DNA from: Candidatus Yanofskybacteria bacterium
Lineage (GTDB): Bacteria > Patescibacteriota > Minisyncoccia > Minisyncoccales > UBA10102
Reading direction: 5' to 3'
Length of the DNA stretch: 64,000 nt
Assembly: GCA_030688685.1 (NCBI GenBank)
Contig: JAUYJF010000006.1
Location: forward strand, 120 to 64,119
The notes under the pieces were generated by a model. It made no database searches. It was not told the DNA's origin and worked only from the letters and a program-made list of their open reading frames with translations. Made by a program: the position numbers and the translations under genes. How positions within the stretch are numbered: position 1 is the first letter of the stretch; every line of letters starts with the position of its first letter. Positions 13,449-46,487 of the stretch are shown here, one piece after another.

Positions 13449-13522
13449 CTGGTGGGGGCGAGGAGATTCGAGCTCCCGCTTCCGATGTGAAAGGCCGGTG
13501 ACCTTCCCGTAGTCGACGCCCC
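13449..13522 (-). tRNA. tRNA-Glu (anticodon UUC), CCA encoded
   Basis: My manual fold gives a 7-bp acceptor stem GGGGGCG/CGCCCCC, U8, a D-arm GACU/GGUC, the anticodon loop CUUUCAC (identical to the E. coli tRNA-Glu loop), a T-arm GGGAG-CUCGAAU-CUCCU, discriminator A and CCA. Length is 74 nt. Confidence 0.8.
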
Positions 13523-30422: not shown

Positions 30423-31058
30423 CTATTTCTTTTTTCCCGCAAAGGTTTCTTCAAGAACCTGGATGGATTCTTTGGGAAGCACCAAATAGCGCGTATTCAG
30501 CAGATCCAGCGCGTTTAAGTCCCTCGCCTGCATGGGAACAGCAAAGGCAATGTTCTGGATCGCCCGGATCAACGCCTGGTTCATGGACGGAAGCGCGATC
30601 AGGGTACGCTTGCTGTCGCAGGGAAGGGAGGTAAGCATGGAGGCAATATTTTTGGTTTTTGCTTCCACGGCGCTCAGGTCATCCACGATAAGGATCTCCT
30701 TGTCCTTCATTTTTTCAGAGAGCACGCAAAAGAGCGCTTTTCTTCTCATTTTCTTGTTAATCTTCAGCTCAACCGTGCCGGTTCTCGGTCCAAAGGTTAC
30801 TCCTCCTCCGCGCCAAATGGGAGATCTCGTGGATCCGTGGCGGGCGCGCCCCGTATGCTTTTGCGCCCAGGGTTTTCTTCCTCCCCCGGAAACCTCAGCG
30901 CGAGTCTTCGCGTGAGCTGATCCTTGGCTCCTGTTGTTTTTCTGAGACGTTACAACCTGATGAACCAACGCGGGATTCCACGCCACATTAAACAGCTGCT
31001 GGGGCAATTCCATTGTCCCGATTTCTTCTCCTTTGGTGTTGTAGAGAGAAATAGTCAT
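30423..31058 (-). CDS. rplD: 50S ribosomal protein L4
   Basis: L4 sequence. Confidence 0.9.
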   Translation of the reverse strand: MTISLYNTKGEEIGTMELPQQLFNVAWNPALVHQVVTSQKNNRSQGSAHAKTRAEVSGGGRKPWAQKHTGRARHGSTRSPIWRGGGVTFGPRTGTVELKINKKMRRKALFCVLSEKMKDKEILIVDDLSAVEAKTKNIASMLTSLPCDSKRTLIALPSMNQALIRAIQNIAFAVPMQARDLNALDLLNTRYLVLPKESIQVLEETFAGKKK

Positions 31059-31654
31059 AGGGTATGTGAGCCGCGAATTTCCAGAAGCGTACCCCGAGCT
31101 CCAGGTACCGCTCCCTTCACTGCCATCAGACTATGCTCAGCGTCAATTTTCATAACCTGCAGATTTTTCACCGTTATGCGGGACCTGCCTGCTTGTCCCG
31201 GCATTCTCCTTCCCTTGATAACCCGCTGGGGAAACCTTCCTCCGACAGATCCGATAGTTCGCTGTTCATGCTTTACTCCGTGGGTTGAGTTTCTTCCCGC
31301 GAATCCGTGGCGCTTTACTCCCCCCTGGAATCCCTTTCCTTTTGAAACGCCCGCGACCGTAACCATATCTCCCTCCTGAAACAAAGAAACATCCAAGCTT
31401 GAGCCAGCTTGGAATGATTCGCCCTCACCTACCTTGAACTCTTTCAAATGCGTAAATGGGGCTGCTTTCTTGGACTTCTTGGGCTTTGCAATTTGCTTCA
31501 ATCCCGCCTGAATCGCGGAATACCCGTCTTTCTCGCTTGTTTTAATCTGGGTAACCGTCATTGGGCGCACTTGAAGAATGGTAACGGGAACAACCCGTCC
31601 TTGTTCATCAAAGATCTGCGTCATTTCAATTTTCTTTCCCAGTATTGCTTTCAT
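31055..31654 (-). CDS. rplC: 50S ribosomal protein L3
   Basis: Start placed at MKAILGKKIEMTQIFDE. The ORF-track N-terminal extension reads through the leader. Confidence 0.9.
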   Translation of the reverse strand: MKAILGKKIEMTQIFDEQGRVVPVTILQVRPMTVTQIKTSEKDGYSAIQAGLKQIAKPKKSKKAAPFTHLKEFKVGEGESFQAGSSLDVSLFQEGDMVTVAGVSKGKGFQGGVKRHGFAGRNSTHGVKHEQRTIGSVGGRFPQRVIKGRRMPGQAGRSRITVKNLQVMKIDAEHSLMAVKGAVPGARGTLLEIRGSHTL

Positions 31655-31777
31655 GTTTCCTGTTGTCGTGAATATCCAACAAAACACCGGGTACTGCCCC
31701 CGGTATGAAAAACGGAAGTCTGTACCTGAAGGGATCACCAAATCCTGTAGCCTGAAAGGTGAAACCGCATGTGCGTA

Positions 31778-31806
31778 AGTGTAACGCATTCCGCGCATTG
31801 CGTCAA
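31778..31806 (-). promoter_or_regulatory. candidate promoter TTGACG-N17-TACACT for rplC and downstream genes, with a ~117-nt leader
   Basis: Read on the minus strand. It is needed because a terminator and inserted genes separate rplC from rpsJ. Confidence 0.35.
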
Positions 31807-31835
31807 TAGGCATAAAAACTGAGCCTTGTACGGCC

Positions 31836-31877
31836 CTTAAAAAGGCGGGGGCGCTCAAGAAATGCGCTTCCCCCGCC
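31836..31877 (-). terminator. intrinsic terminator after the zinc-ribbon gene
   Basis: GGCGGGGGCGC...GCG-CUU-CCCCCGCC is followed on the minus strand by UUUUUAA. Confidence 0.6.
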
Positions 31878-31894
31878 TTATATTGAAGAGGTTA

Positions 31895-32104
31895 TCACCC
31901 CTTTCCATATGAGGCTACCTCCAAAGTACGTAGGTTCGCCTTGAGATTCTTCTTGCAGTCCGGACACCAGGCATTGCCATCCTCCAGCCGGTGGCCTCCC
32001 ACGTCTACCGAGGTGTTCCCCTCATAGTCCGTCGTCAGTACCTCCTTGTACCTTTCTCCACATATTCTGCACTGTGTGAAGCCTTGCCACTCTGTGTTTC
32101 TCAT
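31895..32104 (-). CDS. small zinc-ribbon protein (~69 aa; CRIC...CPDC)
   Basis: The RBS AGGAGGAGTAAGGAGG precedes ATGAGATG, and the second ATG is in frame. There are two CxxC pairs. Confidence 0.5.
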   Translation of the reverse strand: MRNTEWQGFTQCRICGERYKEVLTTDYEGNTSVDVGGHRLEDGNAWCPDCKKNLKANLRTLEVASYGKG

Positions 32105-32169
32105 CTCATCCTCCTTACTCCTCCTGAACTCCCTTTCTCGCTTCGGATGCTTCTTTATACGCCGCAAAG

Positions 32170-32229
32170 AGAAAAATGCAAATATACAAATAAAGAGACG
32201 AATGAGAGGCGGGATTCTTCCCGCCTCTC
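32170..32229 (-). terminator. hairpin terminator downstream of the TauE gene, about 300 nt after its stop
   Basis: A perfect 10-bp stem GAGAGGCGGG/CCCGCCTCTC is followed on the minus strand by a T-rich tract. Confidence 0.5.
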
Positions 32230-32529
32230 TCACGCGATATGCTTGGCAATCTCTTTTGAAGGAGCGTAAAGCTCCTTACTTGGCTCCGTAGGAGAATGCC
32301 AGCAAACTCTGCCGGTTCCGTCCCGGCATACCCACAATCTCCACCTCCCCTCATAGGTAATGCCTGGATTTTTACACCGCGGGCAAAAGAGCATGAAAAT
32401 CCTTCCTTTCTGCAGAAAGGGTGCAGGAGGTTCTTGCTAGTGTATCTTCCGCAGCAGGAAAGCGTCAAGAGGAATCCTCTCGTACTTTCGGTGGATCCGG
32501 TTCCTTGTTCCGGCCAAGGATAAACTTGT

Positions 32530-33249
32530 CTAGGCGAACACGAGAAGACGAAAGCCAACAAGGAGAAGAAAAACAGCTACAAGAAGTCGGAAGTACTTCT
32601 GGGGCACCTTTTCCACAATCCCCTTTGCGAGGACAGCCCCCAGCAAAGAAGCCGGAACAAACAAGAAAAGCCCCCAGAAAAGATGGGAGGGCAGAGTCGC
32701 CCCGCCGCTTATATACGCTCCAACGCGCGTACTATCCACCGCAAAGCCAATCGCCCCGGAGGTAGCAAGATACACCGCCTTTGGTAGATCAAACAGGCTC
32801 AGGAATGCGCCCCTCACCGCTCCCCCAATTCCAAAAATACCCGCAAAGAATCCGGACAATACCCCTCCCGCAAGCGCAGTACCACTGGTTTTAGGAAGCT
32901 TGAGCCGCGGCTTTAACAAAAGAAGCCCAACATAGCCAATAAGGAAAGCACCCAGTACGCGAGAGAGCAAAATCTCTGGTACCTCAAATACAAGCTGAAC
33001 GGCAAAGAAAGTCGCCAAAACCCCTGGAGCTCCAAAGAGCATGATAAGGCGCCACCGCAATCCCTCCCGGAAAAGCGCCACTTTCCAGATATCAACTGAC
33101 CAGTGAATAATCCCCGCGAACAGCAGGGTAACAGGGAGCGGAAAGAAAAAGAGCAAAACCGGCACCATGATAGTTGAGGTGCCAAAACCGCTCACTGTTC
33201 CCACAAAGGAAGCAACCGCAACAAGCAGCGCGAGCGCGAGGGTTTCCAT
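32530..33249 (-). CDS. TauE/SafE (DUF81) family anion exporter
   Basis: Two repeated 4-TM halves with Gly-rich motifs (GFGTSTIMVP, GIFGIGGAVR). Confidence 0.8.
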   Translation of the reverse strand: METLALALLVAVASFVGTVSGFGTSTIMVPVLLFFFPLPVTLLFAGIIHWSVDIWKVALFREGLRWRLIMLFGAPGVLATFFAVQLVFEVPEILLSRVLGAFLIGYVGLLLLKPRLKLPKTSGTALAGGVLSGFFAGIFGIGGAVRGAFLSLFDLPKAVYLATSGAIGFAVDSTRVGAYISGGATLPSHLFWGLFLFVPASLLGAVLAKGIVEKVPQKYFRLLVAVFLLLVGFRLLVFA

Positions 33250-33302
33250 GAGTGCTTTATACCATCAAATACGTGAATGGGGAAAACTTAGCCGAGCTAA
33301 GG

Positions 33303-33354
33303 TGGGACTAAAAATGACCAAGTCGAGTGAGTCATTTACGGAGCGGGGCGGTTT
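33303..33354. repeat. direct repeat copy L with the near-perfect palindrome AAATGACCAAGTCGAGTGAGTCATTT
   Basis: TGGGACTAA...ATGACNNAGTCGAGTGAGTCATTTACGRRGCGGGGCGGTTT is shared with 34154-34238. It lies between the TauE start and the NYN stop. Confidence 0.6.
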
Positions 33355-33486
33355 GGGGGTTTTCCAGCCCGCGAGCAGGTCCTTTGGTTCAGGACGACTC
33401 TTGACAGCTCTTGATCCTCTTTGCTATCATTAGAGTATCACCACGAAAAAGACCCTTGCATGGATCCGTCCATACTGGGGGCTTTT

Positions 33487-33987
33487 TCATTTTAGCTCAT
33501 ACCCTACCTTATGCTTTACCTCGTTTAAATATACAATCGGAACGCCTGTTCTCTTTAATAAAACAGAACACTTGCTTGTGGGCGCGGGAGAGACGATGTC
33601 ACAATGGACCCCTTTTTCTGCCCAAAACTTTACCAATGGAGTGTAGTCGCCATCGCTTGAGACAAGCACAACAGAGGCAACGCCCTGCTCAAAGTAATCT
33701 CTTGCCGCCTGGAGCACCAAATCAGCATCACAATTTCCCTTCGCCCTTCCGTTGCCATCGTAAATAACCTCTTTAAAGACCAGCACATACCCGATGTTTT
33801 GCAGAGCGGTATAAAGATTCGCGTGTTTGGGCATCAAGCCAATGAACAAATAAGCATCCGTCGCACCGAATTTTTGACGGATCCAAGACCGGAATTTTCG
33901 ATAATCCAGCTTCCACAATGAGGACTCAACACCCTTGTGAAGGTTTGCTCCGTCTATATACGCAATATTCTTGGGGGTGGGCTGCAT
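33487..33987 (-). CDS. NYN-domain (LabA/PIN-like) putative RNase (~166 aa)
   Basis: IAYIDGANLHKG...VLVSSDGDYTPLV is the NYN signature. Start placed at ATG 33987. The ORF-track TTG start at 34086 adds an unrelated N-terminus. Confidence 0.7.
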   Translation of the reverse strand: MQPTPKNIAYIDGANLHKGVESSLWKLDYRKFRSWIRQKFGATDAYLFIGLMPKHANLYTALQNIGYVLVFKEVIYDGNGRAKGNCDADLVLQAARDYFEQGVASVVLVSSDGDYTPLVKFWAEKGVHCDIVSPAPTSKCSVLLKRTGVPIVYLNEVKHKVGYELK

Positions 33988-34153
33988 ATTTTTGGATTTT
34001 ATTGACAAACTATCTCCACCATACCCCCTTTGGAAGTGGGTTTCAATCCTTCGACTACGCTCAGGACAAACCTGAATTTGAGGCAAATTTCCACCATTTG
34101 GCGCAGGGCTGGGCTAAGCCGTACTTAGTCTAGTTCACAATATGACACTAGTC

Positions 34154-34238
34154 TGGGACTAAGCGAGGAAAACTTGTCCCGATGAAGTTTTGGGGAAATG
34201 ACTCAGTCGAGTGAGTCATTTACGAGGCGGGGCGGTTT
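34154..34238. repeat. direct repeat copy R with the perfect 26-bp palindrome AAATGACTCAGTCGAGTGAGTCATTT
   Basis: The palindrome is at 34196-34221 with 10-6-10 architecture. Copy R has a 36-nt insertion relative to copy L. It lies between the NYN gene and the divergent small gene. Confidence 0.6.
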
Positions 34239-34357
34239 AAATTAGAGGCCCGTGGATGCACAGAGGTGCTTGCGCACCGGTGCTCATTGTACTAGCATGG
34301 GGCCAGAACATTTGTGCTACTCCCGCCATTCCATCAATCGCCAAAAAAGGAGGTAGC

Positions 34358-34534
34358 ATGCCTGCACGAAAAGAGCCGCCACTGGAGTTGCTGAGCCGGG
34401 ACGAGTTGCTCGCCTATTGCCAACAACTCCGCGCAAGTTGTTCGTTTTGGCAATGGTTATTCGGTGCTACACTGTTAGCGGCGATCATCGGAGGGCCAAT
34501 CGTCAGCACCATTCTTCGGCGCGGCATTTGTTAG
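34358..34534 (+). CDS. small single-TM protein P1 (58 aa)
   Basis: A perfect AAGGAGGT is 5 nt upstream of the ATG. The C-terminal TM is LFGATLLAAIIGGPIVSTIL. It is paralogous to the convergent minus-strand small ORF. Confidence 0.5.
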   Translation: MPARKEPPLELLSRDELLAYCQQLRASCSFWQWLFGATLLAAIIGGPIVSTILRRGIC

Positions 34535-34562
34535 GACATTGCTGAATCCAAGGCAGAACCCA

Positions 34563-34596
34563 GAAGGCTACTTCACCGCAGAAGTAGCCTTTTCAA
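34563..34596 (+). terminator. hairpin terminator after P1
   Basis: GAAGGCTACTTC-accgca-GAAGTAGCCTT-TTCAAT. Confidence 0.45.
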
Positions 34597-34643
34597 TGTG
34601 GATAATTTAACTAGACTGAGTTTGATAGGATTTCCAACTCCAG

Positions 34644-34675
34644 AAAAAGACCGCCCTTTGGGGGACAGTCTTTTT
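34644..34675. terminator. bidirectional A5/T5-flanked hairpin between the convergent small genes
   Basis: AAAAAGAC-cgccctttgggggaca-GTCTTTTT. Confidence 0.5.
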
Positions 34676-34697
34676 GTCTCATTACCTCAGCTAACAG

Positions 34698-34877
34698 CTA
34701 ACCCGATAGCCGACATACGTTATACGCCACTCCGAGCACGATGATGCCCAAGATTAAAGCTACAACGGTGGCCCACCAGCCTCTTTTCTCTCGACGCAGC
34801 TCTTCGGTGAGGCGCAGGCATTCCTGTGCCAGCTGCTCTCGACTCATTGAGTTATAGTCGTTCAAGGGGCTATTCAT
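34698..34877 (-). CDS. small single-TM protein P2 (59 aa; below the ORF-track cutoff)
   Basis: My manual translation reads MNSPLNDYNSMSREQLAQECLRLTEELRREKRGWWATVVALILGIIVLGVAYNVCRLSG. A GGAGGGA RBS is about 9 nt upstream. It aligns with P1 over SR[DE][EQ]L..xC..LR...W.W plus the TM. Confidence 0.45.
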   Translation of the reverse strand: MNSPLNDYNSMSREQLAQECLRLTEELRREKRGWWATVVALILGIIVLGVAYNVCRLSG

Positions 34878-35093
34878 CTTTCCCGTCCCTCCGCCTCGTA
34901 GAATTGGGGAGAAGTGAGGGGTTTCACCTGTTCTCCCATGAGGAGGGGAAGGAGAGATGCTTTAGAGTACATCAGCATGCGGTTTTGTTCAAGGCTGAAT
35001 GGGGATAACTTAACGAAGTTAAAGCAGGATTCTGGGAAAACCAAAAACCGCCTTTCGGCGGTCTCTGATCCAGACAAGTAATGCCTGAGTTTG

Positions 35094-35426
35094 CTACATT
35101 TTTATCTCAATATCCACTCCGGCGGGCAAATTGATGCTTGAGAGAGCGTCAATTACTTTCTGGTTGGGATCTGGGATATCAATGAGGCGTTTGTGAGTTC
35201 GCATCTCAAACTGTTCCCTCGCGTCTTTGTGCACAAACGGCGAGCGGTTCACCGTGTATTTGCGGTGCTCTGTAGGCAAAGGAATAGGACCTATCACCTC
35301 GCATCCCTGCCGAAGAACCGCTTCCACAATCTGCTTTGAGGAAGAGTCTATCACCTTGTGGTCATAGGCAGAAATACGGATCCTTAATCTTTGCTGAGTT
35401 GGTGTGTGCTTTTCAGCGGTCGCCAT
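35094..35426 (-). CDS. rpsJ: 30S ribosomal protein S10
   Basis: [18 protein letters not shown]...GPIPLPT. Confidence 0.95.
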
Positions 35427-35451: not shown

Positions 35452-36645
35452 CTAGTTTACGATCTTCGTCACAACTCCAGCTCCCACGGTTTTGCCTCCT
35501 TCGCGGATCGCGAATCTCTGCTGTTCTTCCATGGCAATGGGAACCTGAAGCTTTACCTTGACAGAGACAGTGTCTCCGGGCATCACCATTTCCGTCCCTT
35601 CAGGAAGCGTAACATCTCCGGTTACGTCCGTTGTTCGGAAATAGAACTGAGGCTTATACCCTGAGAAGAAAGGAGTGTGGCGTCCTCCTTCTTCTTTCGT
35701 GAGGACATAGATCTCGCACTCAAATTCCGTATGAGGAGTTACTGACCCTGTTTTTGCCATGACCTGCCCTCGCTCAATTTCATTCTTCTCAATGCCGCGG
35801 AGAAGAAGACCGACATTGTCTCCGGCCCTTCCTTCATCCAAGGACTTATTAAACATTTCAACTGATACCACGGTTGTCTTTCGCGTGTCGCCCAGACCAA
35901 CAATCTCCACTTCCTCGTTCTGGTGAACGATTCCGCGTTCAATGCGTCCGGTTGCCACGGTTCCGCGCCCCTGGATGGAAAATACGTCTTCCACCGCCAT
36001 AAGGAAAGGCTTGTCAATTTCCCGAACAGGCTCTGGAACATAGGAATCAACCGTACTCATAAGCTCGAGAATGGGCTTCACTGCCTCATCCTCGGGAGAA
36101 GCTCCTTCCAAGGCCTTCAAAGCGGATCCCCGAATGATTGGAGTTGTGTCTCCAGGATATCCATACTTCTTTAACAGCTCGCGGACCTCAGATTCAACCA
36201 AGTCAATCATCTCAGGATCATCCACCATGTCTACCTTGTTCAAGAATACGACAATGGAAGGAAGTCCCACCTGCCGAGCCAACAAGATGTGCTCGCGGGT
36301 CTGGGGCATAGGGCCGTCAGGAGCGGAAACCACAAGAATAGCTCCGTCCATCTGAGCCGCTCCCGTAATCATGTTTTTAATGTAGTCAGCGTGACCTGGG
36401 GCGTCAATGTGCGCGTAGTGCCTGTTTTCTGTTTCATACTCCAAATGGGAGATATTGATGGTAATCCCCCGCTGTCGCTCCTCTGGAGCAACGTCAATCT
36501 GATCCACCGATTTCTCCGATGAAATCAAGCCCTTCAGTTTCAGGGCATGGAGAATAGCGGCAGACAATGTGGTCTTTCCGTGATCCACGTGACCAATTGT
36601 TCCAATGTTCACGTGGGGCTTTTTTCTTTCAAATTTTTCTGCCAT
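35452..36645 (-). CDS. tuf: elongation factor Tu
   Basis: [22 protein letters not shown]. Confidence 0.97.
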
Positions 36646-36688: not shown

Positions 36689-36922
36689 TTATAGGGGCAA
36701 ATCCTCAATTGTCAATTCTTCTCTGGCTCTCACAGGCTCAGGAGAAGCAGGGCGCCCCCTTTCTTCCGGAACACTTGGCAATGCCGCGGTTTTGGGCACA
36801 ACCGCTTTCTGTCCTTTGTATTCTTCAAAGGAAAGCGCGACCAGAACCGGCTTGCCGTTCTCTACGATTACGACCTTTCCTCCTTCATGTTCAATAAATT
36901 CTTTAAGCTCTTGAATATCCAT
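36689..36922 (-). CDS. Phd/YefM-like antitoxin-fold small protein (77 aa), with no toxin gene adjacent
   Basis: ELKEFIEHEGGKVVIVENGKPVLVALSFEEYK matches the YefM/Phd N-domain pattern. The C-terminal half is Pro/Glu-rich and looks disordered. It lies between fusA and tuf. Confidence 0.45.
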   Translation of the reverse strand: MDIQELKEFIEHEGGKVVIVENGKPVLVALSFEEYKGQKAVVPKTAALPSVPEERGRPASPEPVRAREELTIEDLPL

Positions 36923-36928
36923 ACCGTG

Positions 36929-39037
36929 TTATTTTCCCCGTGCTTCAATGACGCCTTGCGCAATATGCGCTGAAGTCTCTTCATACGCTTCAAACTCCAT
37001 GGTAAACGTGCCTCTTCCTTCTGTAAGGGAACGAAGATTCGTGGCGTATCCGAACATTTCAGAAAGCGGCACCTTCGCGTGAATGATTTTCATGCCAAGC
37101 TGGTCTTCCGTTTCCTCAATCTTTCCCCGCTTTGAGGCAAGATCCCCGATGATATCCCCAAAAAACTCTTCAGGAATGGTAACCTCCAGGCGCATGATCG
37201 GTTCAAGCAGTACGAGATTCGCTTTTCGTGTCGCCTCCTGCAGTCCCATGGATGCGGCGATCTTAAAAGCAATCTCGGAGGAATCCACCTCATGGTAGCT
37301 TCCGTCATACAATGATACCTCAAAGTCAATGAGGGGGTATCCCGCGAGGACTCCTTTGTCTGCCGCCTCCCTGATTCCCTTTTCTACCGCGGGAATATAT
37401 TCATGAGGAATTGACCCTCCCTTAATTTCGTTCAAAAACGCGAAGCCCTGTCCGCGCTCTCGCGGCCTGACCCGAAGATACACGTGTCCGTATTGTCCGC
37501 GTCCTCCCGATTGCCTCACGTACTTGCCTTCGGCCTGCGCCTCCTGGCGAATCGTCTCCTTGTAGGCAACCTGAGGCCTGCCCACGTTCGCTTCAACCCC
37601 GAACTCCCGGCGCATCCGATCCACGATAATATCCAGGTGGAGTTCGCCCATTCCAGAGATGATCGTTTCTCCGGTCTCCAGATCCGTCTTGACGCGAAAC
37701 GTTGGATCCTCTTCCATAAGCCGCTTTAAGGCCTGGCCCATCTTTTCCTGGTCTTGCTTTGTTTTCGGTTCAATGCGTACGGAAATAACGGGTTCTGGGA
37801 ATACGATCTGCTCCAGAAGAATGGGGTTGTTCTCGTCACACAAAGTATGTCCGGTGGAAGTTCCTTTGAGCCCCACGGTGGCCGCGATATCTCCCGCGTA
37901 TAATTCTTCCACTTCTTCCCGCTCGTTCGCGTGCATGAGCAAGAGACGGCTGACGCGCTCTTTCTCTCCAACGGTTGAATTGAGCACGTAGGATCCTTTC
38001 TTCAGCGTCCCAGAGTAGATGCGGAAATACGTTAAGCTCCCCACGTACGGATCAGAGGCGATCTTGAAGGCGAGAGCGGAAAAGGGTTCTTCGTCCGAAG
38101 CCTTGCGCTCTACCTCTTCTCCTGTTTTTGGATGCACTCCCGTAACCGGCGGAACATCCAAAGGGCTGGGCAGGTAATCCACAACGGCATCCAGCACAAG
38201 CTGAACGCCTTTGTTGCGGAGAGCCGTACCCACAAGCACCGGAACAAGCTTTGAGGCAAGTGTCGCTTTCCGGAGCGTCTTCTTCAGTTGTTCCGCGCCT
38301 ATCTCCTTTCCTTCCAGGTAGGCATTCATAAGCTGCTCATCTTCTGCCGCGATTTTTTCCACCAGGGTATCATGCAGCTCCTTTGCCTTTGCCTTGAGAT
38401 CTTCTGGAATTTCCCGCTCCTTGGTAATTTGGCCGAAATCTCCCTCAAATTCATAGGCCTTCAAGGTGATCAGGTCCACCATTCCGGAAAATTCCCCTTC
38501 TTGTCCTATGGGCAAGTGGATGGCAACCGCGTTCTTGGTGAGTTTTTTTGCGATAGATTCCAGGCACCGATCAAAGGAAGCTCCCGTTCTGTCAATCTTA
38601 TTAATAAAGCAGATGCGGGGAACTTTAAATTTGTCTGCTTGCCGCCATACCGTTTCTGACTGGGGTTCCACTCCGGAAACCCCGTCAAAGACAACAACCG
38701 CTCCATCCAAAATGCGGAGGGAGCGCTGTACCTCCACGGTAAAGTCAATGTGGCCGGGGGTATCAATAATGTTAATGCGGTATTCATTTTCCTTGCCCCG
38801 GCTTTGCGTGTAGGTGGGAATCCAAAAGCATGTGGTCGCCGCCGAAGTGATCGTGATTCCCCGCTCTCGCTCCTGTTCCATCCAGTCCATGACAGCGGCG
38901 CCCTCATGCACTTCCCCGATCTTGTGGGAAATTCCCGTATAAAACAAAATCCGCTCGGTTGTTGTTGTTTTCCCAGCGTCAATATGGGCAATGATCCCAA
39001 TGTCGCGAACCCGTTCAATTGGATACTGTCTCGGCAT
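36929..39037 (-). CDS. fusA: elongation factor G
   Basis: [20 protein letters not shown], and full domains II-V. Confidence 0.97.
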
Positions 39038-39987: not shown

Positions 39988-40644
39988 TTAGTAGCAAAAA
40001 GGGAAGATTCCGGGGAGCGCGCACACAGGCACTCCTACAATAAGCTGAAAAAGCCCGAGGATAGGGATGAGGATAAGGCCAAAAAATAACCCGGGAAACA
40101 GGAAGATAAGCGCCAAGAGCATGAAGAATCCGTATCGGAAGAAGAAATCCCGAACCTCGGCAAGCTGCGGAGGAAGAAAGACGGATAGAACATGCGAGCC
40201 ATCCAAAGGAGGAATGGGAACCATGTTAAAAATACCAAGAATGATATTCAGGAGCACAATATCCCGAAGAATGGGAACTATCGCTTGAAGCGCTTCCTGG
40301 TTCATTCCAAACCGAAGAAGGAGCCCAAAGGTAACAGCCAAGGCAAGATTTGCCGCAATGCCCGCCAAACTTACCTGTACCTCCCCCCATTTCCTGTTTC
40401 TAAAGTTGAGGGGATTTACCGGGACCGGCTTTGCCCACGCGATAAGTCCCCGCACCGGAAGCAACACTAAAATAAGCGGCACCAGGATGGATCCCACAGG
40501 GTCAATATGAGGAATGGGGTTGAGCGTAAGGCGCCCCGCGTCCTTTGCGGTGGAATCCCCTTGCGAATAGGCGGCCAGCCCGTGAGAAACCTCATGAAGC
40601 ACCACAGAGAAAATCAGAACACCAATCAGGAAAATCACTTCCAT
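39988..40644 (-). CDS. site-2 protease (M50) family membrane metalloprotease, small form
   Basis: HEVSHGLAA (HExxH) within a TM helix, plus a downstream LDGSHVL (LDG) motif. Start placed at the internal ATG. Confidence 0.7.
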   Translation of the reverse strand: MEVIFLIGVLIFSVVLHEVSHGLAAYSQGDSTAKDAGRLTLNPIPHIDPVGSILVPLILVLLPVRGLIAWAKPVPVNPLNFRNRKWGEVQVSLAGIAANLALAVTFGLLLRFGMNQEALQAIVPILRDIVLLNIILGIFNMVPIPPLDGSHVLSVFLPPQLAEVRDFFFRYGFFMLLALIFLFPGLFFGLILIPILGLFQLIVGVPVCALPGIFPFCY

Positions 40645-40765
40645 ACCTTTTCTATAACACAGATTTCGTCTGAGAGCTACTTTGCCCTTAGTTTGCTCCA
40701 CCAAAATCAAGAGGGATGTGTTCTCATGGGAACATCCCTCTCATGTTGGTGCAGAAGCTGGAAGA

Positions 40766-41725
40766 CTACGCGGGACACAACTCCACATACTGCTGCACGA
40801 TGTTGGAGAACACCTTTGCGCCACGATTTGCAAATGCGGTGTTGATACCCACCGCCTTGGCACCTGCCAATCGGTAGTCCTGCACATCCTTCCCACACTG
40901 CACTCCCCCGGCCCCCATGAGGTCAATGTCAGAACGAAGCAGTTCCCGGAACTGCACTACCTGGCCTAGGGCGATTCCCTTGAAGCCTGGCCCTGCAAAT
41001 CCCGCCTTGCCTCCGCCGGGCGTAATGGCGGTCTTGGTACCGTCCCACCCAAAGCCATTGGGCCAGGTGTTTGATGCAACCACGCCCCGCACGACTCTCG
41101 AGCCATTGAGCACCTCGGCTGTTTGGCTCAAAAGATTGGGGGGAAGCGGTGAGAGCTTCACGGTAACCCTTACGGTAGTGGAGAAGAATGGGTCCTTCAG
41201 TTCCTGGAGAACTTCGTCCACGAGCACAGGTTCGTAGGAGAAAATCGTTTTCTGCCCGCCTTCTCCCCAAACATTGGAGCAACCGAGGTTGAGCTCAACC
41301 TGATCTGCCCACTGCGCTGCGAATGAGGCGAGCGCATGATACTCCTTCGGGGAGAATCCTGCCACACTCACAATGAGAGGTTTGTCAGTAGCATGAGCGA
41401 GTTCCCTCATCCTGGGAAGCGCCTTCTCGTAGTAGGGCATTCCCCCATTCGGCAGACCGAGAGAGTTGAGGGAGTACCTCCCCTCAGGGTCCATCCAGTA
41501 GGTATCACCCACGTTGAGCTCTCGCCGCTCCATTGTGATGGAACCCACGGTTATGGCACCGACAGGTGTTTTGGCGAGCTGTTCAACCTCCTCTATTGTT
41601 TTACAGCTCCCAGCTGCATTCACCAGGGGACACGCCAATGAAATCCCAGCAAAGACCGTCTCCACGGCACACCTCCAAGAATCAAGATCTGTCTCTCTCC
41701 TACCACTCTCAACAGAGAGCGTCAA
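40766..41725 (-). CDS. dihydroorotate dehydrogenase-like (class 1 DHOD/DHPD family) flavoprotein
   Basis: TIM-barrel DHOD motifs (NLGCSN, ASNTW, GGV..G.D). Confidence 0.7.
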   Translation of the reverse strand: MTLSVESGRRETDLDSWRCAVETVFAGISLACPLVNAAGSCKTIEEVEQLAKTPVGAITVGSITMERRELNVGDTYWMDPEGRYSLNSLGLPNGGMPYYEKALPRMRELAHATDKPLIVSVAGFSPKEYHALASFAAQWADQVELNLGCSNVWGEGGQKTIFSYEPVLVDEVLQELKDPFFSTTVRVTVKLSPLPPNLLSQTAEVLNGSRVVRGVVASNTWPNGFGWDGTKTAITPGGGKAGFAGPGFKGIALGQVVQFRELLRSDIDLMGAGGVQCGKDVQDYRLAGAKAVGINTAFANRGAKVFSNIVQQYVELCPA

Positions 41726-41850
41726 CGAAACCTTGCGTTTTTATAGAAAATGAGTATACTGGTCTTTGTATACGCGTTTCGGTATAGTTATCGTATTTTC
41801 TCGAAATCCGCTAACGTACCCATTCTCTCATTTCTTAAAAATACTCAACT

Positions 41851-42066
41851 ATGGCAAATCGGTGTGAAATATGCGCGAAAAAGAAGAACATCGCTTGGAC
41901 GCGGATAAAACTGCGGGGAAAGTACAACCCTACTTCCAAGCACGCCCAAAAGCCAAATCTCCAGTGGACCCAGCTTTTTGAACCATACGCCGCAAAATTC
42001 GGCGTGAGTGCCGGCACCCGCGTAAAAGCATGCGCCAAGTGCATGAAAGCGCTCTCAAAAACATAA
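41851..42066 (+). CDS. rpmB: 50S ribosomal protein L28
   Basis: MANRCEICAKKKNIAWTRIKLRGKYNPTSKHAQKPNLQ...CAKCMKA is the L28 pattern. Confidence 0.85.
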   Translation: MANRCEICAKKKNIAWTRIKLRGKYNPTSKHAQKPNLQWTQLFEPYAAKFGVSAGTRVKACAKCMKALSKT

Positions 42067-42083
42067 CATTAACTACTCATGAT

Positions 42084-42114
42084 AAAGCTCCGGCCCTCCA
42101 GCCCGGAGCTTTTC
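42084..42114 (+). terminator. intrinsic terminator after rpmB
   Basis: GCTCCGG-ccctccagc-CCGGAGC-TTTTC. Confidence 0.6.
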
Positions 42115-42148
42115 AGTAAGCATTTTTTCTGCTATCTTTTAAAGTATA

Positions 42149-42219
42149 CGGGCTGTAGTATACCGGCAGTACGCGTCCATGGGGTGGATGTAGACTGGGT
42201 TCGATTCCCAGCAGCCCGA
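42149..42219 (+). tRNA. tRNA-Pro (anticodon GGG)
   Basis: My manual fold gives an acceptor stem CGGGCTG/CAGCCCG with the C1-G72 pair typical of bacterial tRNA-Pro. It has U8, a D-arm GTAT/GTAC with GG in the loop, an anticodon stem CGTCC/GGATG with loop AUGGGGU (U33, GGG, G37), and a T-arm CTGGG-TTCGATT-CCCAG. CCA is not encoded. Confidence 0.8.
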
Positions 42220-42305
42220 CATCAAAATCTCATTTACTAGCGGGTATAAAAAACTTGCCCACAGCAGAAGTTGAATCTGCAACTTTTCGGACAGAAACTG
42301 TCTCA

Positions 42306-42334
42306 TTGACTTCTCTTTGCCGTTTTTCTAGGAT
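42306..42334 (+). promoter_or_regulatory. promoter TTGACT-N17-TAGGAT for the MazG-like gene
   Basis: Good -35 and -10 boxes with a 17-nt spacer. It is about 40 nt upstream of the RBS-preceded GTG start. Confidence 0.45.
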
Positions 42335-42375
42335 GCGCCTAGATCATTCAAGTACATGGCGTATAGGAGGTTGCC

Positions 42376-43029
42376 GTGAAAAAATCTTTGTCGTTGCATC
42401 AATGGCAACACATAGTTCGAAGAATATATGGTTGTAAGGACATGCGGGATTATACTCCCGAGTCACTTCTCCTCCACATCGTAAAGCAGATGGGGAGAAT
42501 CGCAAAAGCATTGCGGCGAGAGGATCAAAAGGACCTGCTGCGCGCTTTGCCCCGTTTCTATATCTGGGTAGTGTCATTCTGCGTGATGTACCGCATTGAT
42601 TTGGAGGAGGCGGTATGGAACAAGTACAAAGGCTGCTGTCCGTACTGCGGCGCCACAGAACATTGTTCCTGCGCCTCCAACAGCACCAAACCCGCGCAAT
42701 GGTACCGCAATGAATCAGTAATGCGGCCGCGGACTGTCGCAGAGTGGCAGGAAATGTTCAGACGGATATACGGAGAGACCAACCATACCCTGTCCCTCAC
42801 AGAAATCGGCCTTCACCTCGCAGAAGAGGTGGGCGAAGTCAGTGAGGCGTTTTATCTCCGGGAAAGAGACGGGGAAGCGCCCCTCCATTACGAGATAGCA
42901 GACACAATAGCGTGGCTGTTCGCGCTCGCAAATCGCCTGGGCATTGACCTTGGGGCCTTATCCTGGGAGGCGTACCCTGGGGTATGCGATACCTGCAGAA
43001 TGCGGGAATGCGCATGCCCGCTTGTATAA
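42376..43029 (+). CDS. tandem MazG-like nucleotide pyrophosphohydrolase domain protein with Cys clusters
   Basis: There are two EEVGE..EA...E.AD..WLFALANRLGIDL-type MazG helices. The GTG start has AGGAGG upstream. It contains CCPYCG...CSC and C-terminal CDTCRMRECAC motifs. Confidence 0.6.
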   Translation: MKKSLSLHQWQHIVRRIYGCKDMRDYTPESLLLHIVKQMGRIAKALRREDQKDLLRALPRFYIWVVSFCVMYRIDLEEAVWNKYKGCCPYCGATEHCSCASNSTKPAQWYRNESVMRPRTVAEWQEMFRRIYGETNHTLSLTEIGLHLAEEVGEVSEAFYLRERDGEAPLHYEIADTIAWLFALANRLGIDLGALSWEAYPGVCDTCRMRECACPLV

Positions 43030-43103
43030 AAATCTTTAAAGCTCTTCCATCCGCCTCGTGGGAGAGCTTTATTTTATGGAAAGTCATGCTACTATAGAAA
43101 ATC

Positions 43104-43400
43104 ATGCGTTTTGAAATTCCCCTCCAGAACCAAAATCTCCCGCAAATAATGCGGCAATGCGGATACGCGCCCGAAGGGCAGGACGGAGATGAATGGAAAT
43201 TCACGCGTCCCCTCCGGGGCGCCAGGTACCCGAGATTCCACATGTACGCCAGGACATCTCCGGATGCCGCGAAAGCCTCTCTCAATCTTCACTTGGATCA
43301 AAAACAGCCCTCGTACAGAGGGAGTTCAGCTCACAGCGGCGAGTACGACGGCCCGCTCGTGGAGCAGGAGGCCGCCCGTATTCAATCTCTTGTTTCCTGA
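43104..43400 (+). CDS. hypothetical protein (98 aa)
   Basis: An ORF with no SD. It converges on the HD gene with a 19-nt overlap. Confidence 0.35.
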   Translation: MRFEIPLQNQNLPQIMRQCGYAPEGQDGDEWKFTRPLRGARYPRFHMYARTSPDAAKASLNLHLDQKQPSYRGSSAHSGEYDGPLVEQEAARIQSLVS

Positions 43401-43966
43401 GCAAGCACTTGCTCCTGAATCTTTTTCCACCAGGAAAATTCCTGGTTTTTCAGCAGAGAAAGCTGCTTCTCGTAGATGCCTTGAAAAAACTTATTTCCTA
43501 CCCGCACTTCTTCCGCGCATTTTGCGATGAGGGAAAGGCGGTCTGCCGTTTTTACCATTTGCGCCTCAATTGATTTCCCCTCCCCTTCTTCCACCCACAG
43601 GGAGATGTATCGCTCTTTGAGGGTATCGGGGAGCCCCTCAAACTCTTGAGGAATGACTTCTTTATTTACCCTGCGTATTGTCTCTGTGATCTCCGGGGAA
43701 TAATGCTTAAAGGGAGTGAGAATATCTCCGGAAAACGCCTCTTCTTTATCATGGACAAGAGCCATGGCAAGAACCTTTTCCTTGTCCACCGTCTCCCCGC
43801 GCGCTTGCGTAAGATCGCAGAGAATGAGAGCGATATACGCGGTAAAGAATGAGTGTTCCGCCACGCTCTCGGGAAAATGCTGAGGCGTGGAAGAAAACCG
43901 CCGAATATGCGCGAGAGACCGTTGTAAAATATGCCCAAAGATTCCCATACAAAACCCTGCTCTCAA
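43382..43966 (-). CDS. HD-domain phosphohydrolase (YfbR-like 5'-deoxynucleotidase family)
   Basis: H...HD motif (VAEHSF...LVHDKEEAFSGDI). Confidence 0.7.
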   Translation of the reverse strand: MRAGFCMGIFGHILQRSLAHIRRFSSTPQHFPESVAEHSFFTAYIALILCDLTQARGETVDKEKVLAMALVHDKEEAFSGDILTPFKHYSPEITETIRRVNKEVIPQEFEGLPDTLKERYISLWVEEGEGKSIEAQMVKTADRLSLIAKCAEEVRVGNKFFQGIYEKQLSLLKNQEFSWWKKIQEQVLAQETRD

Positions 43967-44105
43967 ATTACCGATTCCGAAATAGATCTAGGTGAGTGCC
44001 GTATCCTTGAGCCCACAGGCCCAAGGAGCATCCAGCTCTCTTGGAACGATAATGCGGAATCGTAAAAAGGAGAACAGGGCACTTCTATTGTATCGTGCTC
44101 CAGAG

Positions 44106-44693
44106 CTACTCGTCAATGCCAAATCTCCGGTATTTGTAGATAGCAGCGTCGTGGAACCACTGCTGTAGTTCATGCGCGGCTTCCTCTGGTGTTTCAGAGG
44201 CATGCACTAGATTCATCACCGCTCTTTTTTCCTTGTTGGCAAGCAGAGGCGAGTCAGCGGAAAAGTCCCCGCGAATTGTTCCCATGTCCGCCAGATATGG
44301 CATAGTAGGACCCGCGATCTTGCGAACCATGTCCACGGCGTGGATTCCCTGCACCGCCATCTTCACCAGGGGAGCTGAGGTCATAAAATTAATAAGCCAT
44401 CCCCGTACCATTGTTCCAATTTCCAGATCATCTGCCGTTCCAAGTTCTTCTTTGGCGTCAAATCCGTACTTTTCGTAGGTGGCGAGAGTTTTCTGTCCCA
44501 GGCGCCTGATCCATGCCTCCTCCTTCGGATAATGATCATCCATTTCTTCGCGGGTTGGCTGGAACATCTGCAGGGCGATAATCTTGAGATCCCGCTGTTC
44601 AATTCGTTTGATGATCTCCCCGATCAAACCTTTCCTGACTCCGTCCGGCTTAATGAGCACAAATGTTTTTTCCTCTTTTGGATGCTCTGGCAT
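44106..44693 (-). CDS. ndk: nucleoside diphosphate kinase
   Basis: TFVLIKPDGV and NLVHAS (catalytic His region). Confidence 0.85.
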   Translation of the reverse strand: MPEHPKEEKTFVLIKPDGVRKGLIGEIIKRIEQRDLKIIALQMFQPTREEMDDHYPKEEAWIRRLGQKTLATYEKYGFDAKEELGTADDLEIGTMVRGWLINFMTSAPLVKMAVQGIHAVDMVRKIAGPTMPYLADMGTIRGDFSADSPLLANKEKRAVMNLVHASETPEEAAHELQQWFHDAAIYKYRRFGIDE

Positions 44694-44713
44694 TTCGTAT
44701 GATGTTATATGTT

Positions 44714-45547
44714 TTAATAGGAGAAGGAGATCGTAATATCCCCGTCCAGGTCCGTTCTCAATATACCTATACCATAGCGCCCGAAAGTTTCAATGGTTTC
44801 CTGGTGCGGATGCCCATAGGGATTGTCAAATCCGGCGGATACAACCGCAAGAGACGGACGAACTGTTTCCACAAACAAAGGACTGCTTGAGGTCTTGCTT
44901 CCGTGATGCCCAGCCAGCAAAACATCCGAAGCGAGCTGCTTGCCGGAATTCACCAGCTCTTGCTCAATACTCTTGGGCGCGTCCCCGGGAAAAAGGGCTG
45001 ATCCTCCGGGGGTTTCCAGGCGCAGCACGATTGATCCCTCATTCGCGTCCTTCTCGTATGCCGCCATATGATCCAGGGGAGCAAGCACTTCTAAAAACCC
45101 GCGATCTCCCCAGTACATGACTTGCCTTTCCCGCGCGAGAACGCCTTGGGCTCCCGAGCGTTCCATGGCGCTGAGAAAACGCTCAAAGGTGCCGGTCTCC
45201 TTCCCTTCCCCGGTCCATAAGATCCGCGCGACGGCATAGCGCTCAAACACAAACGCCAGCCCCGCGATATGATCCGCGTCAGCATGCGTCGCAACCACAA
45301 GATCAAGGGATCTCTTCCAAAAAGGAAGCGCTCCCCCAAGTTTTTTGAGAATAGTATCTCCTCTTCCTCCGTCAATAAGAATGGCGTGCCCTTGGCGCGT
45401 CCGTATCAGAATCGCGTCGCCCTGCCCCACGGCAAAAAAATGCGCATGGAGAGATTGAGACGCTTGCACCTCTTTCCATACCTCAATATTCGCGAACACA
45501 AGTAACCAAAATACTCCAAGAAGCAGCGGAGCAAGGCGAATACCCAT
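44714..45547 (-). CDS. metallo-beta-lactamase fold hydrolase (ComEC C-terminal-like), secreted or membrane-anchored
   Basis: HADADH motif (VVATHADADHIAGL). It has an N-terminal TM or signal segment. Confidence 0.7.
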   Translation of the reverse strand: MGIRLAPLLLGVFWLLVFANIEVWKEVQASQSLHAHFFAVGQGDAILIRTRQGHAILIDGGRGDTILKKLGGALPFWKRSLDLVVATHADADHIAGLAFVFERYAVARILWTGEGKETGTFERFLSAMERSGAQGVLARERQVMYWGDRGFLEVLAPLDHMAAYEKDANEGSIVLRLETPGGSALFPGDAPKSIEQELVNSGKQLASDVLLAGHHGSKTSSSPLFVETVRPSLAVVSAGFDNPYGHPHQETIETFGRYGIGILRTDLDGDITISFSY

Positions 45548-45779
45548 ACGCCCGAACGGTTACGCGCTTGGAAGAAACCGCATCATTTTTGTCTGGCAGA
45601 CAGGACACGCTCCCTGCATAGCTCTTCGCTTCTTCCCTCCCTTTGCGTCAATCTCTACCTCCTTCTCGTTTGCCATTTCTCTTTTTGTCTTGCATCGGAC
45701 ACAATATGCTTCAGTTGCCATATGAGTGTGGTATGTAATTGCTTATTGGATATAAAAATGACCTTTCAAACAGTATACT

Positions 45780-46487
45780 CTAACAAACAAGGACGCGAAA
45801 TGCCTCTCCATATTTCACACGCTTCTTTTTCCCAGCCGCCCGAGCCCGAGCAAGGATATGGCCCTTTGTCTGATCCAATGAAAACCACTGACTTTCATGG
45901 GAAAGAACCGCCTGAAGTTTTAATTGCATCGTGCTTGAGACATCAATAAAACGGTTCGGGGAATCAGAAGAGAAAAACCACAGCTCTTCCACCTGATGCG
46001 GAGCAAGCCCCTTTTTGAGGAGCGCGGGGAAAAAAGATATGTTGCCCACCGCAGGATACACCGCGTCAAATACCGTTTCAGCTCCCACGCGATGATCGCG
46101 GTGAGATCGATACGTACTTTCAAAACCGGAACTCGCAGGATCAAACGTAAAGATGATATCCGGGCGCAAGTCCCGAATGAACGCCACGAGCGCGCCTCTG
46201 AGCTTTTTTGTGTTCTCAAGCTCCCCATCCGTCTCTCTGAGAAAATGCACGGAAGAAACTCCCAACACATCCGCCGCGTTCTTCTGCTCTCTTTCCCGGA
46301 TACGCGCCAGCTTTTTTCCCCCAAACCCTGTTTTGTGGCTTCCCTTTGATCCGTCCAAAAGAATGAGTTCGTACACATCGCTCCCTTCGCGTACAAGGCG
46401 GGCAAGCGTTCCCGCGCATCCAAAATCTGAATCATCCGGGTGGGGAGAAATTACCAAAACCTTCTTTTTCTTGGCAAATACTGGCAT
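45780..46487 (-). CDS. PIG-L/LmbE family N-acetylglucosaminyl deacetylase
   Basis: VISPHPDDSDFGCAGT. Confidence 0.8.
   Translation of the reverse strand: MPVFAKKKKVLVISPHPDDSDFGCAGTLARLVREGSDVYELILLDGSKGSHKTGFGGKKLARIREREQKNAADVLGVSSVHFLRETDGELENTKKLRGALVAFIRDLRPDIIFTFDPASSGFESTYRSHRDHRVGAETVFDAVYPAVGNISFFPALLKKGLAPHQVEELWFFSSDSPNRFIDVSSTMQLKLQAVLSHESQWFSLDQTKGHILARARAAGKKKRVKYGEAFRVLVC

Follow-up and report, generated by a model that had tools for sequence, protein, structure and literature searches.

Zengel and Lindahl reportedly found that ribosomal protein L4 of E. coli causes attenuation at a hairpin and U-run lying before the first gene of the S10 operon. The distribution of this leader has been reviewed (PMC3616713), and in Archaeoglobi an L4 leader candidate occurs upstream of rplC-rplD-rplW-rplB (Eckert and Weinberg, 2020, PMC7247131). 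In archaea uS10 is invariably encoded away from uL3-uL4-uL23 (PMC10833476), and in Salmonella the str operon is parted from the S10 operon by the genes bfd-bfr-hopD (Brandis, Cao and Hughes, 2019, PMC6735719). Here we analyze a stretch of 64,000 nucleotides (nt) from a Candidatus Yanofskybacteria bacterium (assembly GCA_030688685.1, contig JAUYJF010000006.1, positions 120 to 64,119; hereafter, the window), in which rpsJ, the gene for S10, is separated from rplC, the gene for L3, by a block holding six genes. We consider it likely that these genes are a lineage-specific accessory set that fills the spacer between a fusA-tuf-rpsJ unit and an rplC-rplD-rplW-rplB... unit, upstream of an inherited leader.

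Results

The separation of rpsJ and rplC is derived

The genes fusA (36929-39037) and tuf (EF-Tu, 35452-36645), both called as open reading frames (ORFs), rpsJ (35094-35426; Pfam Ribosomal_S10, 7.3e-36) and rplC (31055-31654, with its ATG at 31654; Pfam Ribosomal_L3) all lie on the minus strand of the window, with tuf directly 5' of rpsJ. Downstream of rplC come rplD, rplW, rplB, rpsS, rplV and rpsC. The gap from rpsJ to rplC occupies 31655-35093 and measures 3,439 nt, in line with the 3.4-kb separation reported in a first-pass annotation of this DNA. Six genes lie in it, coding for two small membrane proteins (TM1 and TM2), a nuclease of the NYN type, a TauE transporter and two proteins with zinc ribbons. 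Non-coding DNA makes up about 43% of the block, a high share for a genome of the Candidate Phyla Radiation (CPR).

From species-representative genomes and metagenomes we collected 161 loci surrounding L3 homologues, and used tblastn to find S10, EF-Tu, L3 and the insert proteins within them. In 145 of the 148 scorable related loci rplC follows directly on rpsJ, and the gap between them, 122 nt at the median, is nowhere wider than 1,119 nt; after removal of duplicates, the 127 remaining loci gave a median of 126 nt. The contiguous loci cover every named neighbouring group (Wildermuth-, Nealson- and Staskawiczbacteria), and tblastn found no homologue of an insert gene within 10 kb of rplC in any of the 145. 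Judged by this synteny, the arrangement of the window is derived and rare, not ancestral, because its relatives are contiguous and their loci carry no insert-gene homologues. The first-pass annotation had read the separation as an insertion, and the comparison upholds it: the window's order is not conserved across the lineage.

Wider junctions do occur. The rpsJ-rplC gap reaches at least 300 nt in eight loci, and in two genomes, L008/L092 and L020, the 1.8 kb or more that precede rplC hold no rpsJ. The 1.1-kb rpsJ-rplC gap of L039/L157 (L039 8878-10000) holds a 192-amino-acid (aa) ORF without a Pfam match, and in L020 (1-1840) genes for cohesin- and dockerin-like secreted proteins, then a consensus TTGACA-N17-TATAAT, precede rplC. 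One gene further on, the gap from L3 to L4 has a median of 10 nt and exceeds 300 nt in 11 of 129 related loci (maximum 1,831 nt); these wide rplC-rplD gaps may mark a second insertion-prone junction or may be an artefact of start-codon estimation.

The insert falls at a probable operon boundary

The tuf-rpsJ gap is 25 nt in the window, without a hairpin, and the relatives show a median of 56 nt and no value above 209 nt. From rplB (L2) to rpsC (S3) the genes follow one another at median gaps of 4-6 nt, as against 126 nt for rpsJ-rplC. The tight tuf-rpsJ pair, the long rpsJ-rplC spacer, a promoter-like site within it and a hairpin with U-run before rplC argue for an operon boundary at rpsJ/rplC that existed before the insertion. 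The 'S10 operon' of these bacteria seems to start at rplC, with rpsJ closing the fusA-tuf unit; the str operon of cyanobacteria and plastids also ends in tufA-rps10. The first-pass annotation had described an interrupted operon, a view that we do not retain: on gene spacing, the insertion appears to fall between transcription units, with rpsJ tied to tuf.

The promoter-like site of the window is TTGACG-N17-TACACT (31778-31806, minus strand; 9/12 match), a candidate rplC promoter. MAFFT puts it in the same columns as TTGACG-N17-TAGAGT in L092, TTGACA-N17-TATAAT in L020 and TTGAAA-N17-TATATT in L113, a locus closely related to the named Wildermuthbacteria ones; in L113 the site overlaps the rpsJ stop codon and its -35 element falls within the last rpsJ codons. 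Since aligned promoter-like sites occur in relatives, the rplC promoter is plausibly inherited, like the leader described below. The first-pass annotation gave its sequence and position correctly and called it new, for which we find no support, as relatives have a like-placed site. We also looked for a remnant of the rpsJ 3' end at this promoter and rejected the idea, the shared sequence being ATTGA only.

A conserved RNA element precedes rplC

A GC hairpin followed by a U-run is present before rplC in 113 of 138 distinct relatives and ends at a median of 19 nt before the rplC ATG. In an unfitted MAFFT alignment of 53 sequences, 90% of the cells of this terminator stem pair and compensatory double changes are seen at 7 of 7 pairs, values that none of 500 shuffles reached. 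Some 7-22 nt before the hairpin comes a segment of 5-9 nt that is complementary to its loop and the tip of its left arm, in some cases also to the opening bases of the right arm. This segment and the hairpin tip covary (ATAGCC/GGCTAT, ATTGCC/GGCAAT, ACTAACC/GGTTAGT and GTAACC/GGTTAC), and further compensatory classes of the alternative helix are GCAAATGCT/GGCGTTTGC and GATTAGCC/GGCTAATT. Because the loops are just 3-5 nt long, the alternative pairing must open the top of the hairpin, and the two structures are therefore alternatives, in the manner of a terminator and antiterminator.

In an alignment-free test of the pairing, each distinct apical segment entered once (n=72), and complements were sought within 38 nt upstream. 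An upstream complement of at least 6 bp was found for 53% of the 72 apical segments, against 11% when segments were swapped and 4% in the reverse-complement control, and the observed mean was reached in 0 of 2,000 permutations. In a model-fitted alignment the alternative helix is compensatory at 5 of 6 pairs. A covariance model of this helix built from a narrow ATAGCC-type seed (R1) was run over 1.3 Mb of loci; nearly all of its matches with E <0.01 lie directly upstream of rplC, which sets the leader element apart from a generic terminator. The conserved hairpin and its covarying upstream segment thus suggest a terminator/antiterminator switch.

In the window, the element spans 31674-31727 on the minus strand and consists of an AGGUAC box, a GC hairpin (31684-31706, -15.2 kcal/mol) and a U-run. 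R1, with its ATAGCC-type seed, missed it. A second model carrying the terminator structure and built from GC-richer relatives only (R2) was run over all 64 kb with filters off; it found its best match window-wide at this expected site (17.8 bits, E 0.2), and the R2 scores of the six terminators in the insert are not comparable to that of the leader. In alignment A1, the AGGTAC box and a GGTGTTTTGTTG tail are common to the window and its relatives. By these matches, the window leader is a diverged copy of a clade-wide element, inherited and not new. The first-pass annotation had spoken of a new leader for rplC, a claim that falls away at the rplC-proximal half (31674-31727), which is the conserved element itself.

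Rfam 15 gave no family match for 31600-35100 or for the spacer of the related locus L003, at gathering thresholds or at permissive E-values, and over the whole window its sole match at gathering threshold was a tRNA. In the open literature we found no description of the element, the nearest being the Archaeoglobi candidate (PMC7247131).

Expanded junctions in relatives and the age of the split

The ribosomal proteins closest to those of the window belong to Wildermuthbacteria and to a Patescibacteria metagenome-assembled genome (MAG). Over seven ribosomal proteins the nearest locus is L008/L092, with 61.4% mean identity against 58.9-59.5% for the next loci. L008 (1-2350, = L092) has no rpsJ within 2.35 kb upstream of rplC. 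Its cargo upstream of the rplC leader differs from that of the window and comprises a serine hydrolase (Ser_hydrolase), a MazE/PIN toxin-antitoxin pair and an NYN pseudogene, its reading frame broken by an in-frame stop at 466-468. The L008 contig opens with a terminator identical at 22 of 23 positions to the one that follows rpsJ in the window (35036-35070, minus strand; ACCGCC-GAAA-GGCGGU and a U-run, -21.4 kcal/mol, z -5.15), where it is the predicted intrinsic terminator of the tuf-rpsJ unit. This motif occurs once in the window and, among the fetched loci, in just one other genome besides L008.

These observations raise the possibility, which we hold tentatively, that the rpsJ/rplC split is older than the species and that the junction is a recurrent landing site with turnover of cargo, the six genes being later arrivals. 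This would refine our preferred explanation. It would fit the closest relative carrying different cargo and no nearby rpsJ, the near-identical and rare terminator at the start of its contig, and the repeated expansion of the junction, with cohesin/dockerin genes in L020, the 192-aa ORF in L039 and five further loci above 300 nt. However, the L008 contig stops before any rpsJ, which leaves the homology of the two sites unproven; the NYN genes of the window and L008 are of different subfamilies with only a local 35% similarity, and no other cargo is shared; and L008 is just marginally closer than Wildermuthbacteria, whose genes are contiguous. The past insertion event proposed at first pass holds, but the split may predate the genes that now fill it, as L008 also lacks a nearby rpsJ.

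The expanded loci also bear on the role of the hairpin, which remains beside rplC in all four expanded spacers (the window, L008/L092, L020 and L039). Because it is kept there when the genes are split, and because rpsJ in the window has a separate terminator, the hairpin would belong to the rplC unit. With ~19 nt to the ATG there is no room for a downstream promoter, so that rplC transcripts must traverse the hairpin, and for this reason we read it as an attenuator. We infer by analogy that attenuation takes place there and that a ribosomal protein, L4 by precedent, could set the switch.

The hairpin before rplC could instead be a plain terminator of the tuf-rpsJ unit, without regulatory function and with a functionless upstream pairing. 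It is, after all, the sole terminator-like structure after rpsJ in contiguous genomes, and on the plain MAFFT alignment the alternative helix fails to reach significance, a failure that we attribute to a variable linker shifting the upstream segment out of register. Yet such a terminator would be expected neither to adjoin rplC in the separated loci, where the window's rpsJ has a different one, nor to stand so close to the ATG that rplC transcripts must cross it; its upstream segment covaries with the hairpin tip when no alignment is used, and R1 leaves the ordinary terminators elsewhere in the 1.3 Mb unmatched. We regard this explanation as improbable.

The failure of the plain alignment nonetheless counts against our preferred explanation, as do some other observations. 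The window's leader copy is weak at its R2 score of 17.8 bits (E 0.2), and so is its alternative pairing, which comprises 5 bp (GGUAC/GUACC) across a long linker. In L062, L031 and L065 the extra non-coding spacer lies between the motif and rplC, not upstream. The candidate rplC promoter is just a 9/12 match, such matches are unenriched in the region (9 vs 5.5 +/- 2.0 in shuffles), and taken by itself the site is weak. All in all, we lean towards the view that the rpsJ-rplC spacer of Parcubacteria holds an undescribed ribosomal-protein leader, a terminator/antiterminator switch of ~45-60 nt controlling rplC-rplD-rplW-rplB... and probably sensed by L4 or L3, with the window, L008, L020 and L039 as natural experiments that would tie the element to rplC and not to rpsJ.

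Genes and terminators of the insert

TM1 (34698-34877, minus strand; GGAGGGA 8 nt before the ATG) encodes a 59-aa single-pass membrane protein to which Pfam, NCBIfam and PADLOC scans assigned no family. TM2 (34358-34534, plus strand; AAGGAGG before the ATG) encodes another of 58 aa. The two genes are convergent on opposite strands, and the similarity between their products is weak (E 0.013). The gene for the NYN/LabA-like nuclease (33487-33987, minus strand; 166 aa) has a domain match of 53.3 bits against a Pfam gathering cut-off of 24.2 (PF01936, 5.5e-14) and a PADLOC NYN match at 4e-6. That for the TauE/SafE (TSUP) family membrane transporter (32530-33249, minus strand; 239 aa) matches its family over the full length (PF01925, 1.9e-28; profile positions 1-237/237, 100.2 bits against a cut-off of 32.6). 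It has no Shine-Dalgarno motif, and a TATAAA hexamer stops 6 nt before its ATG (33249-33262, minus strand), which suggests a leaderless mRNA.

The first zinc-ribbon ORF (32230-32394, minus strand; 54 aa, CPRC ... C-x7-C) received no family assignment in the Pfam, NCBIfam and PADLOC scans. The second (31895-32104, minus strand; 69 aa, CxxC ... CxxC) follows a strong AGGAGG; its product has 17 distant homologues, mostly of 63-99 aa, at E 3e-8 to 1e-3 among 1.8 billion representatives, and no record in an exact-protein look-up. Good Shine-Dalgarno motifs precede all four small ORFs. A second promoter-like site, TTGACG-N18-TACACT (32439-32468, minus strand), was found by motif match upstream of the first zinc-ribbon ORF.

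Hairpin folding energies were compared with those of shuffled sequence. Six strong hairpins in the insert, at -17 to -25 kcal/mol, are far more stable than the shuffles, and a seventh is the one inside the rplC leader (31684-31706). Besides the terminator after rpsJ, they comprise one after TM1 (34640-34679, minus strand; -17.2 kcal/mol, z -2.6), a bidirectional one between TM1 and TM2 (34555-34591, both strands; -19.6 kcal/mol on the minus and -19.0 on the plus strand), one after NYN (33443-33490, minus strand; -23.0 kcal/mol, z -4.7), one after the first zinc-ribbon ORF (32204-32229, minus strand; -25.5 kcal/mol, z -4.9) and one after the second (31842-31879, minus strand; -24.7 kcal/mol), which would insulate the rplC unit from the insert. 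Separated by these terminators, each insert gene looks like a transcription unit of its own.

The gene content given in the first-pass annotation largely stands. The TauE/SafE and NYN genes are confirmed by their Pfam matches, the two small membrane-protein genes are present, with the correction that they lie convergent on opposite strands, and the count of at least five hairpin terminators becomes six in the insert and one in the leader. A zinc-ribbon gene is present as reported, but there are two such ORFs where one had been listed.

Origin of the insert genes

NYN homologues 70-84% identical to that of the window occur in many CPR contigs (L162-L168 and L171-L174), whereas the ceiling for L3 is 64%. 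The homologues whose neighbourhoods were compared are 78-84% identical to it. Several are located inside type I and type IIG restriction-modification (R-M) operons. In one type I operon the gene is flanked by hsdM and hsdS, and a TauE gene follows at a distance of 6 kb; others stand beside an Eco57I-type enzyme and an AAA_15/21 ATPase or beside an MvaI/BcnI enzyme and a DEAD helicase. Some are alone among metabolic genes. L168 has both a second NYN gene and a TauE gene near the NYN homologue. From these neighbourhoods, NYN appears to behave as a roaming single-gene cassette. For TauE, the best non-self homologue is 66% identical, and the homologues occur singly in unrelated housekeeping neighbourhoods.

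Pfam, NCBIfam and PADLOC scans detected no integrase, transposase or recombinase among the six insert products, no flanking direct repeats were found around the insert, and there is no tRNA target at the site, the nearest tRNAs being at 13450 and 42149. The GC content of the insert is 0.50 against 0.51 for the window, and GC at third codon positions (GC3) spans 0.51-0.64 in the insert genes and 0.50-0.63 in those of the host. The comparison of GC and codon usage proposed in the first-pass annotation thus finds the insert host-like, with no distinct composition. Its tetranucleotide distance is mildly raised, at ~2 standard deviations above the mean, with 3 of 122 window chunks more distant. With neither a recombinase nor a target-site duplication, arrival by illegitimate or homologous recombination of single-gene cassettes is most likely. 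A phage or plasmid origin was considered and rejected: NYN has no phage match, its plasmid matches are just ~28% identical (rhizobia), and the repeat D1, described next, is absent from viral contigs.

Two repeats, D1 and D2, have copies upstream of TM1, NYN and TauE. D1 is a 43-mer with a 10-bp palindrome, AAATGACTCA-N6-TGAGTCATTT, and its first copy (34196-34238, minus strand) folds at -11.0 kcal/mol (z -4.9). D2, a small hairpin followed by TTATCCCCATTCA, has its first copy upstream of TM1 (34996-35029, minus strand) and occurs only inside the insert. The second copies of D1 and then D2 lie directly upstream of TauE (33274-33354, minus strand), as seen by repeat comparison. Sites of the D1/D2 repeat family in the window are thus 33274-33354, 34196-34238, 34996-35029 and 34593-34610. 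Neither repeat was found in the rest of the window, in the fetched loci or in viral contigs, and the two may be shared regulatory modules or traces of stepwise assembly.

These motifs recall other elements. The D2 tail TTATCCCCATTCA resembles a DnaA box, and the DnaA-box-like TTATCCACA and TTATCCCCA in D2 had suggested a replication origin; this was rejected, as cumulative GC skew keeps its direction, merely flattening between about 33000 and 35500, and the flanking genes share one orientation. An integron-like cassette array, suggested by the hairpin-bearing D1 and D2, was rejected for lack of an integrase and of a regular cassette boundary. A solitary 32-mer, GTTTGTCCTGAGCGTAGTCGAAGGATTGAAAC (GTTTG...ATTGAAAC; 34040-34071, minus strand), resembles a repeat of the CRISPR type (clustered regularly interspaced short palindromic repeats), with a sub-threshold Rfam match to CRISPR-DR9 (19.2 bits, E 0.95). 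Even with up to 3 mismatches allowed, the window holds no further copy of it, and viral contigs gave no match. A CRISPR array or remnant was rejected on finding one lone 32-mer and no regularly spaced repeats.

A different origin for the insert would be a mobile element or defence island integrated in one step by site-specific recombination. The R-M and defence neighbourhoods of NYN homologues, one of them beside a serine recombinase, would be in keeping with this, as would the PADLOC NYN match, the restriction of D1 and D2 to the insert and its rather high tetranucleotide distance. We think it unlikely to be correct. No insert protein has an integrase, transposase or recombinase domain, the site offers neither a tRNA nor flanking direct repeats, GC and GC3 are those of the host, D1 and the CRISPR-like motif have no viral-contig match and NYN no phage match, and PADLOC called no system, only the lone NYN.

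Support for the assembled order

Two points weigh against an insertion event as we describe it. The collections searched (genome and metagenome contigs scanned with L3, and 5.8 billion proteins) hold no close relative, the best non-self L3 being 63-64% identical, and at this distance the insertion cannot be dated or polarised by a sister genome. Moreover, the junctions of the insert with rpsJ and rplC rest on one MAG contig. Logan contigs of 1.1-1.3 kb from run SRR13727534, retrieved by exact S10 and TauE look-ups, span neither junction. One of these independent contigs covers tuf-rpsJ and 34 nt beyond; another joins TauE to the start of the first zinc-ribbon ORF and so confirms that the two are adjacent.

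An assembly chimera that placed foreign DNA between two ribosomal-gene fragments would suit a single MAG contig and same-run contigs that end 34 nt after rpsJ, but we give it very little credence. Both flanks keep the ancestral order and orientation, so that two precise mis-joins would be needed; the insert has the GC and GC3 of the host; rpsJ is followed by a proper terminator, and rplC preceded by a promoter-like site and leader; and an analogous arrangement is found in L008 (a genome record) and L092 (a metagenome record), deposited separately, though possibly from the same data. An ancestral arrangement, in which rpsJ and rplC were never adjacent in the lineage, has the permanent separation of uS10 from uL3-uL4-uL23 in archaea as a parallel (PMC10833476), but is hardly tenable with 145 of 148 scorable related loci contiguous, in every named neighbouring group.

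The flanking region

Between fusA and tuf lies a Phd/YefM-like ORF of 77 aa (36689-36922, minus strand) with a Pfam match below the cut-off (E 3e-4); tblastn found a homologue somewhere in 34 of the 161 related loci. A perfect TTGACA-N16-TATAAT at 36715-36688 overlaps the 3' end of this ORF and is probably the tuf-rpsJ promoter. Upstream of rpsL-rpsG, rpoB and rpoC are missing, and with them the classical rpoBC-str linkage. The genes found there (window 39988-46487) are those for an M50 peptidase, dihydroorotate dehydrogenase, tRNA-Pro(GGG), MazG-like and YfbR-like HD proteins, NDK, a metallo-beta-lactamase-fold protein and PIG-L. The tRNA-Pro(GGG) at 42149-42220 (plus strand) was called by ARAGORN and is unreported by the Rfam tRNA model at gathering threshold.

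Discussion

Our findings argue for the following history. In Parcubacteria the spacer is ~120 nt long, with a promoter-like site and an attenuator-type leader before rplC. In this leader, a GC hairpin and U-run would compete with an upstream segment that pairs with the hairpin tip, giving a choice between terminator and antiterminator. The extra DNA of the window lies upstream of both the promoter-like site and the leader. In the resulting arrangement rpsJ would stop at its own terminator, the insert genes would be transcribed as separate small units, and transcription of rplC and the genes downstream of it would still start at a promoter of their own and run through the inherited leader. We observe which genes are present, the hairpins, that the order is derived and that the leader is conserved and covaries; for use of the rplC promoter, for attenuation at the hairpin and for the ribosomal protein that might set the switch (L4 by precedent), we argue from sequence and analogy.

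The order of ribosomal genes serves as a near-invariant marker for binning and phylogeny of uncultured bacteria, and the rpsJ/rplC break shows a point at which this assumption can fail, because the junction looks like an operon boundary. If the rplC leader proposed above is real, the control point of the CPR 'S10 operon' would lie one gene later than in E. coli, and the junction would be one at which accessory genes have landed repeatedly. Should the element prove to be an autoregulatory attenuator, it would be, as far as we have found, the first ribosomal leader described for the Candidate Phyla Radiation. The NYN gene, better conserved across CPR lineages than the ribosomal proteins and often found in R-M operons, offers a lead for the biology of defence and selfish genes in these bacteria.

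Set beside known systems, the insertion is an ordinary small multigene insertion at a probable operon boundary, of a known kind, and the rplC leader is the more novel of the two. As with bfd-bfr-hopD in Salmonella, a few unrelated genes without mobility functions lie between otherwise colinear blocks of ribosomal genes, which in the window are probably separate operons, and in both cases the flanking gene order and orientation are kept. The window differs in that the boundary comes after rpsJ and not before it, in its CPR host, in its 43% of non-coding DNA and in having a terminator per gene. The archaeal organisation and the str operon of cyanobacteria and plastids offer a second parallel: rpsJ is coupled to tuf, a separate unit begins with the gene for L3, and the rpsJ/rplC junction is a natural break point. 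The relatives of the window, however, keep both units adjacent (~120 nt), and in the window itself the separation is one of 3.4 kb, without dispersal.

The leader resembles that of the E. coli S10 operon in having a terminator-like hairpin and U-run tens of nt before the first cistron of an operon with the L3 and L4 genes, together with a competing upstream structure. The CPR element nonetheless stands before rplC and not before rpsJ, is far shorter at ~45-60 nt, and has no detectable sequence or Rfam relationship to the E. coli leader. By position, the likeness is to the L4 candidate of Archaeoglobi, a conserved RNA motif directly before rplC and the same set of genes, though in another domain of life and with no Rfam model matching the window or L003.

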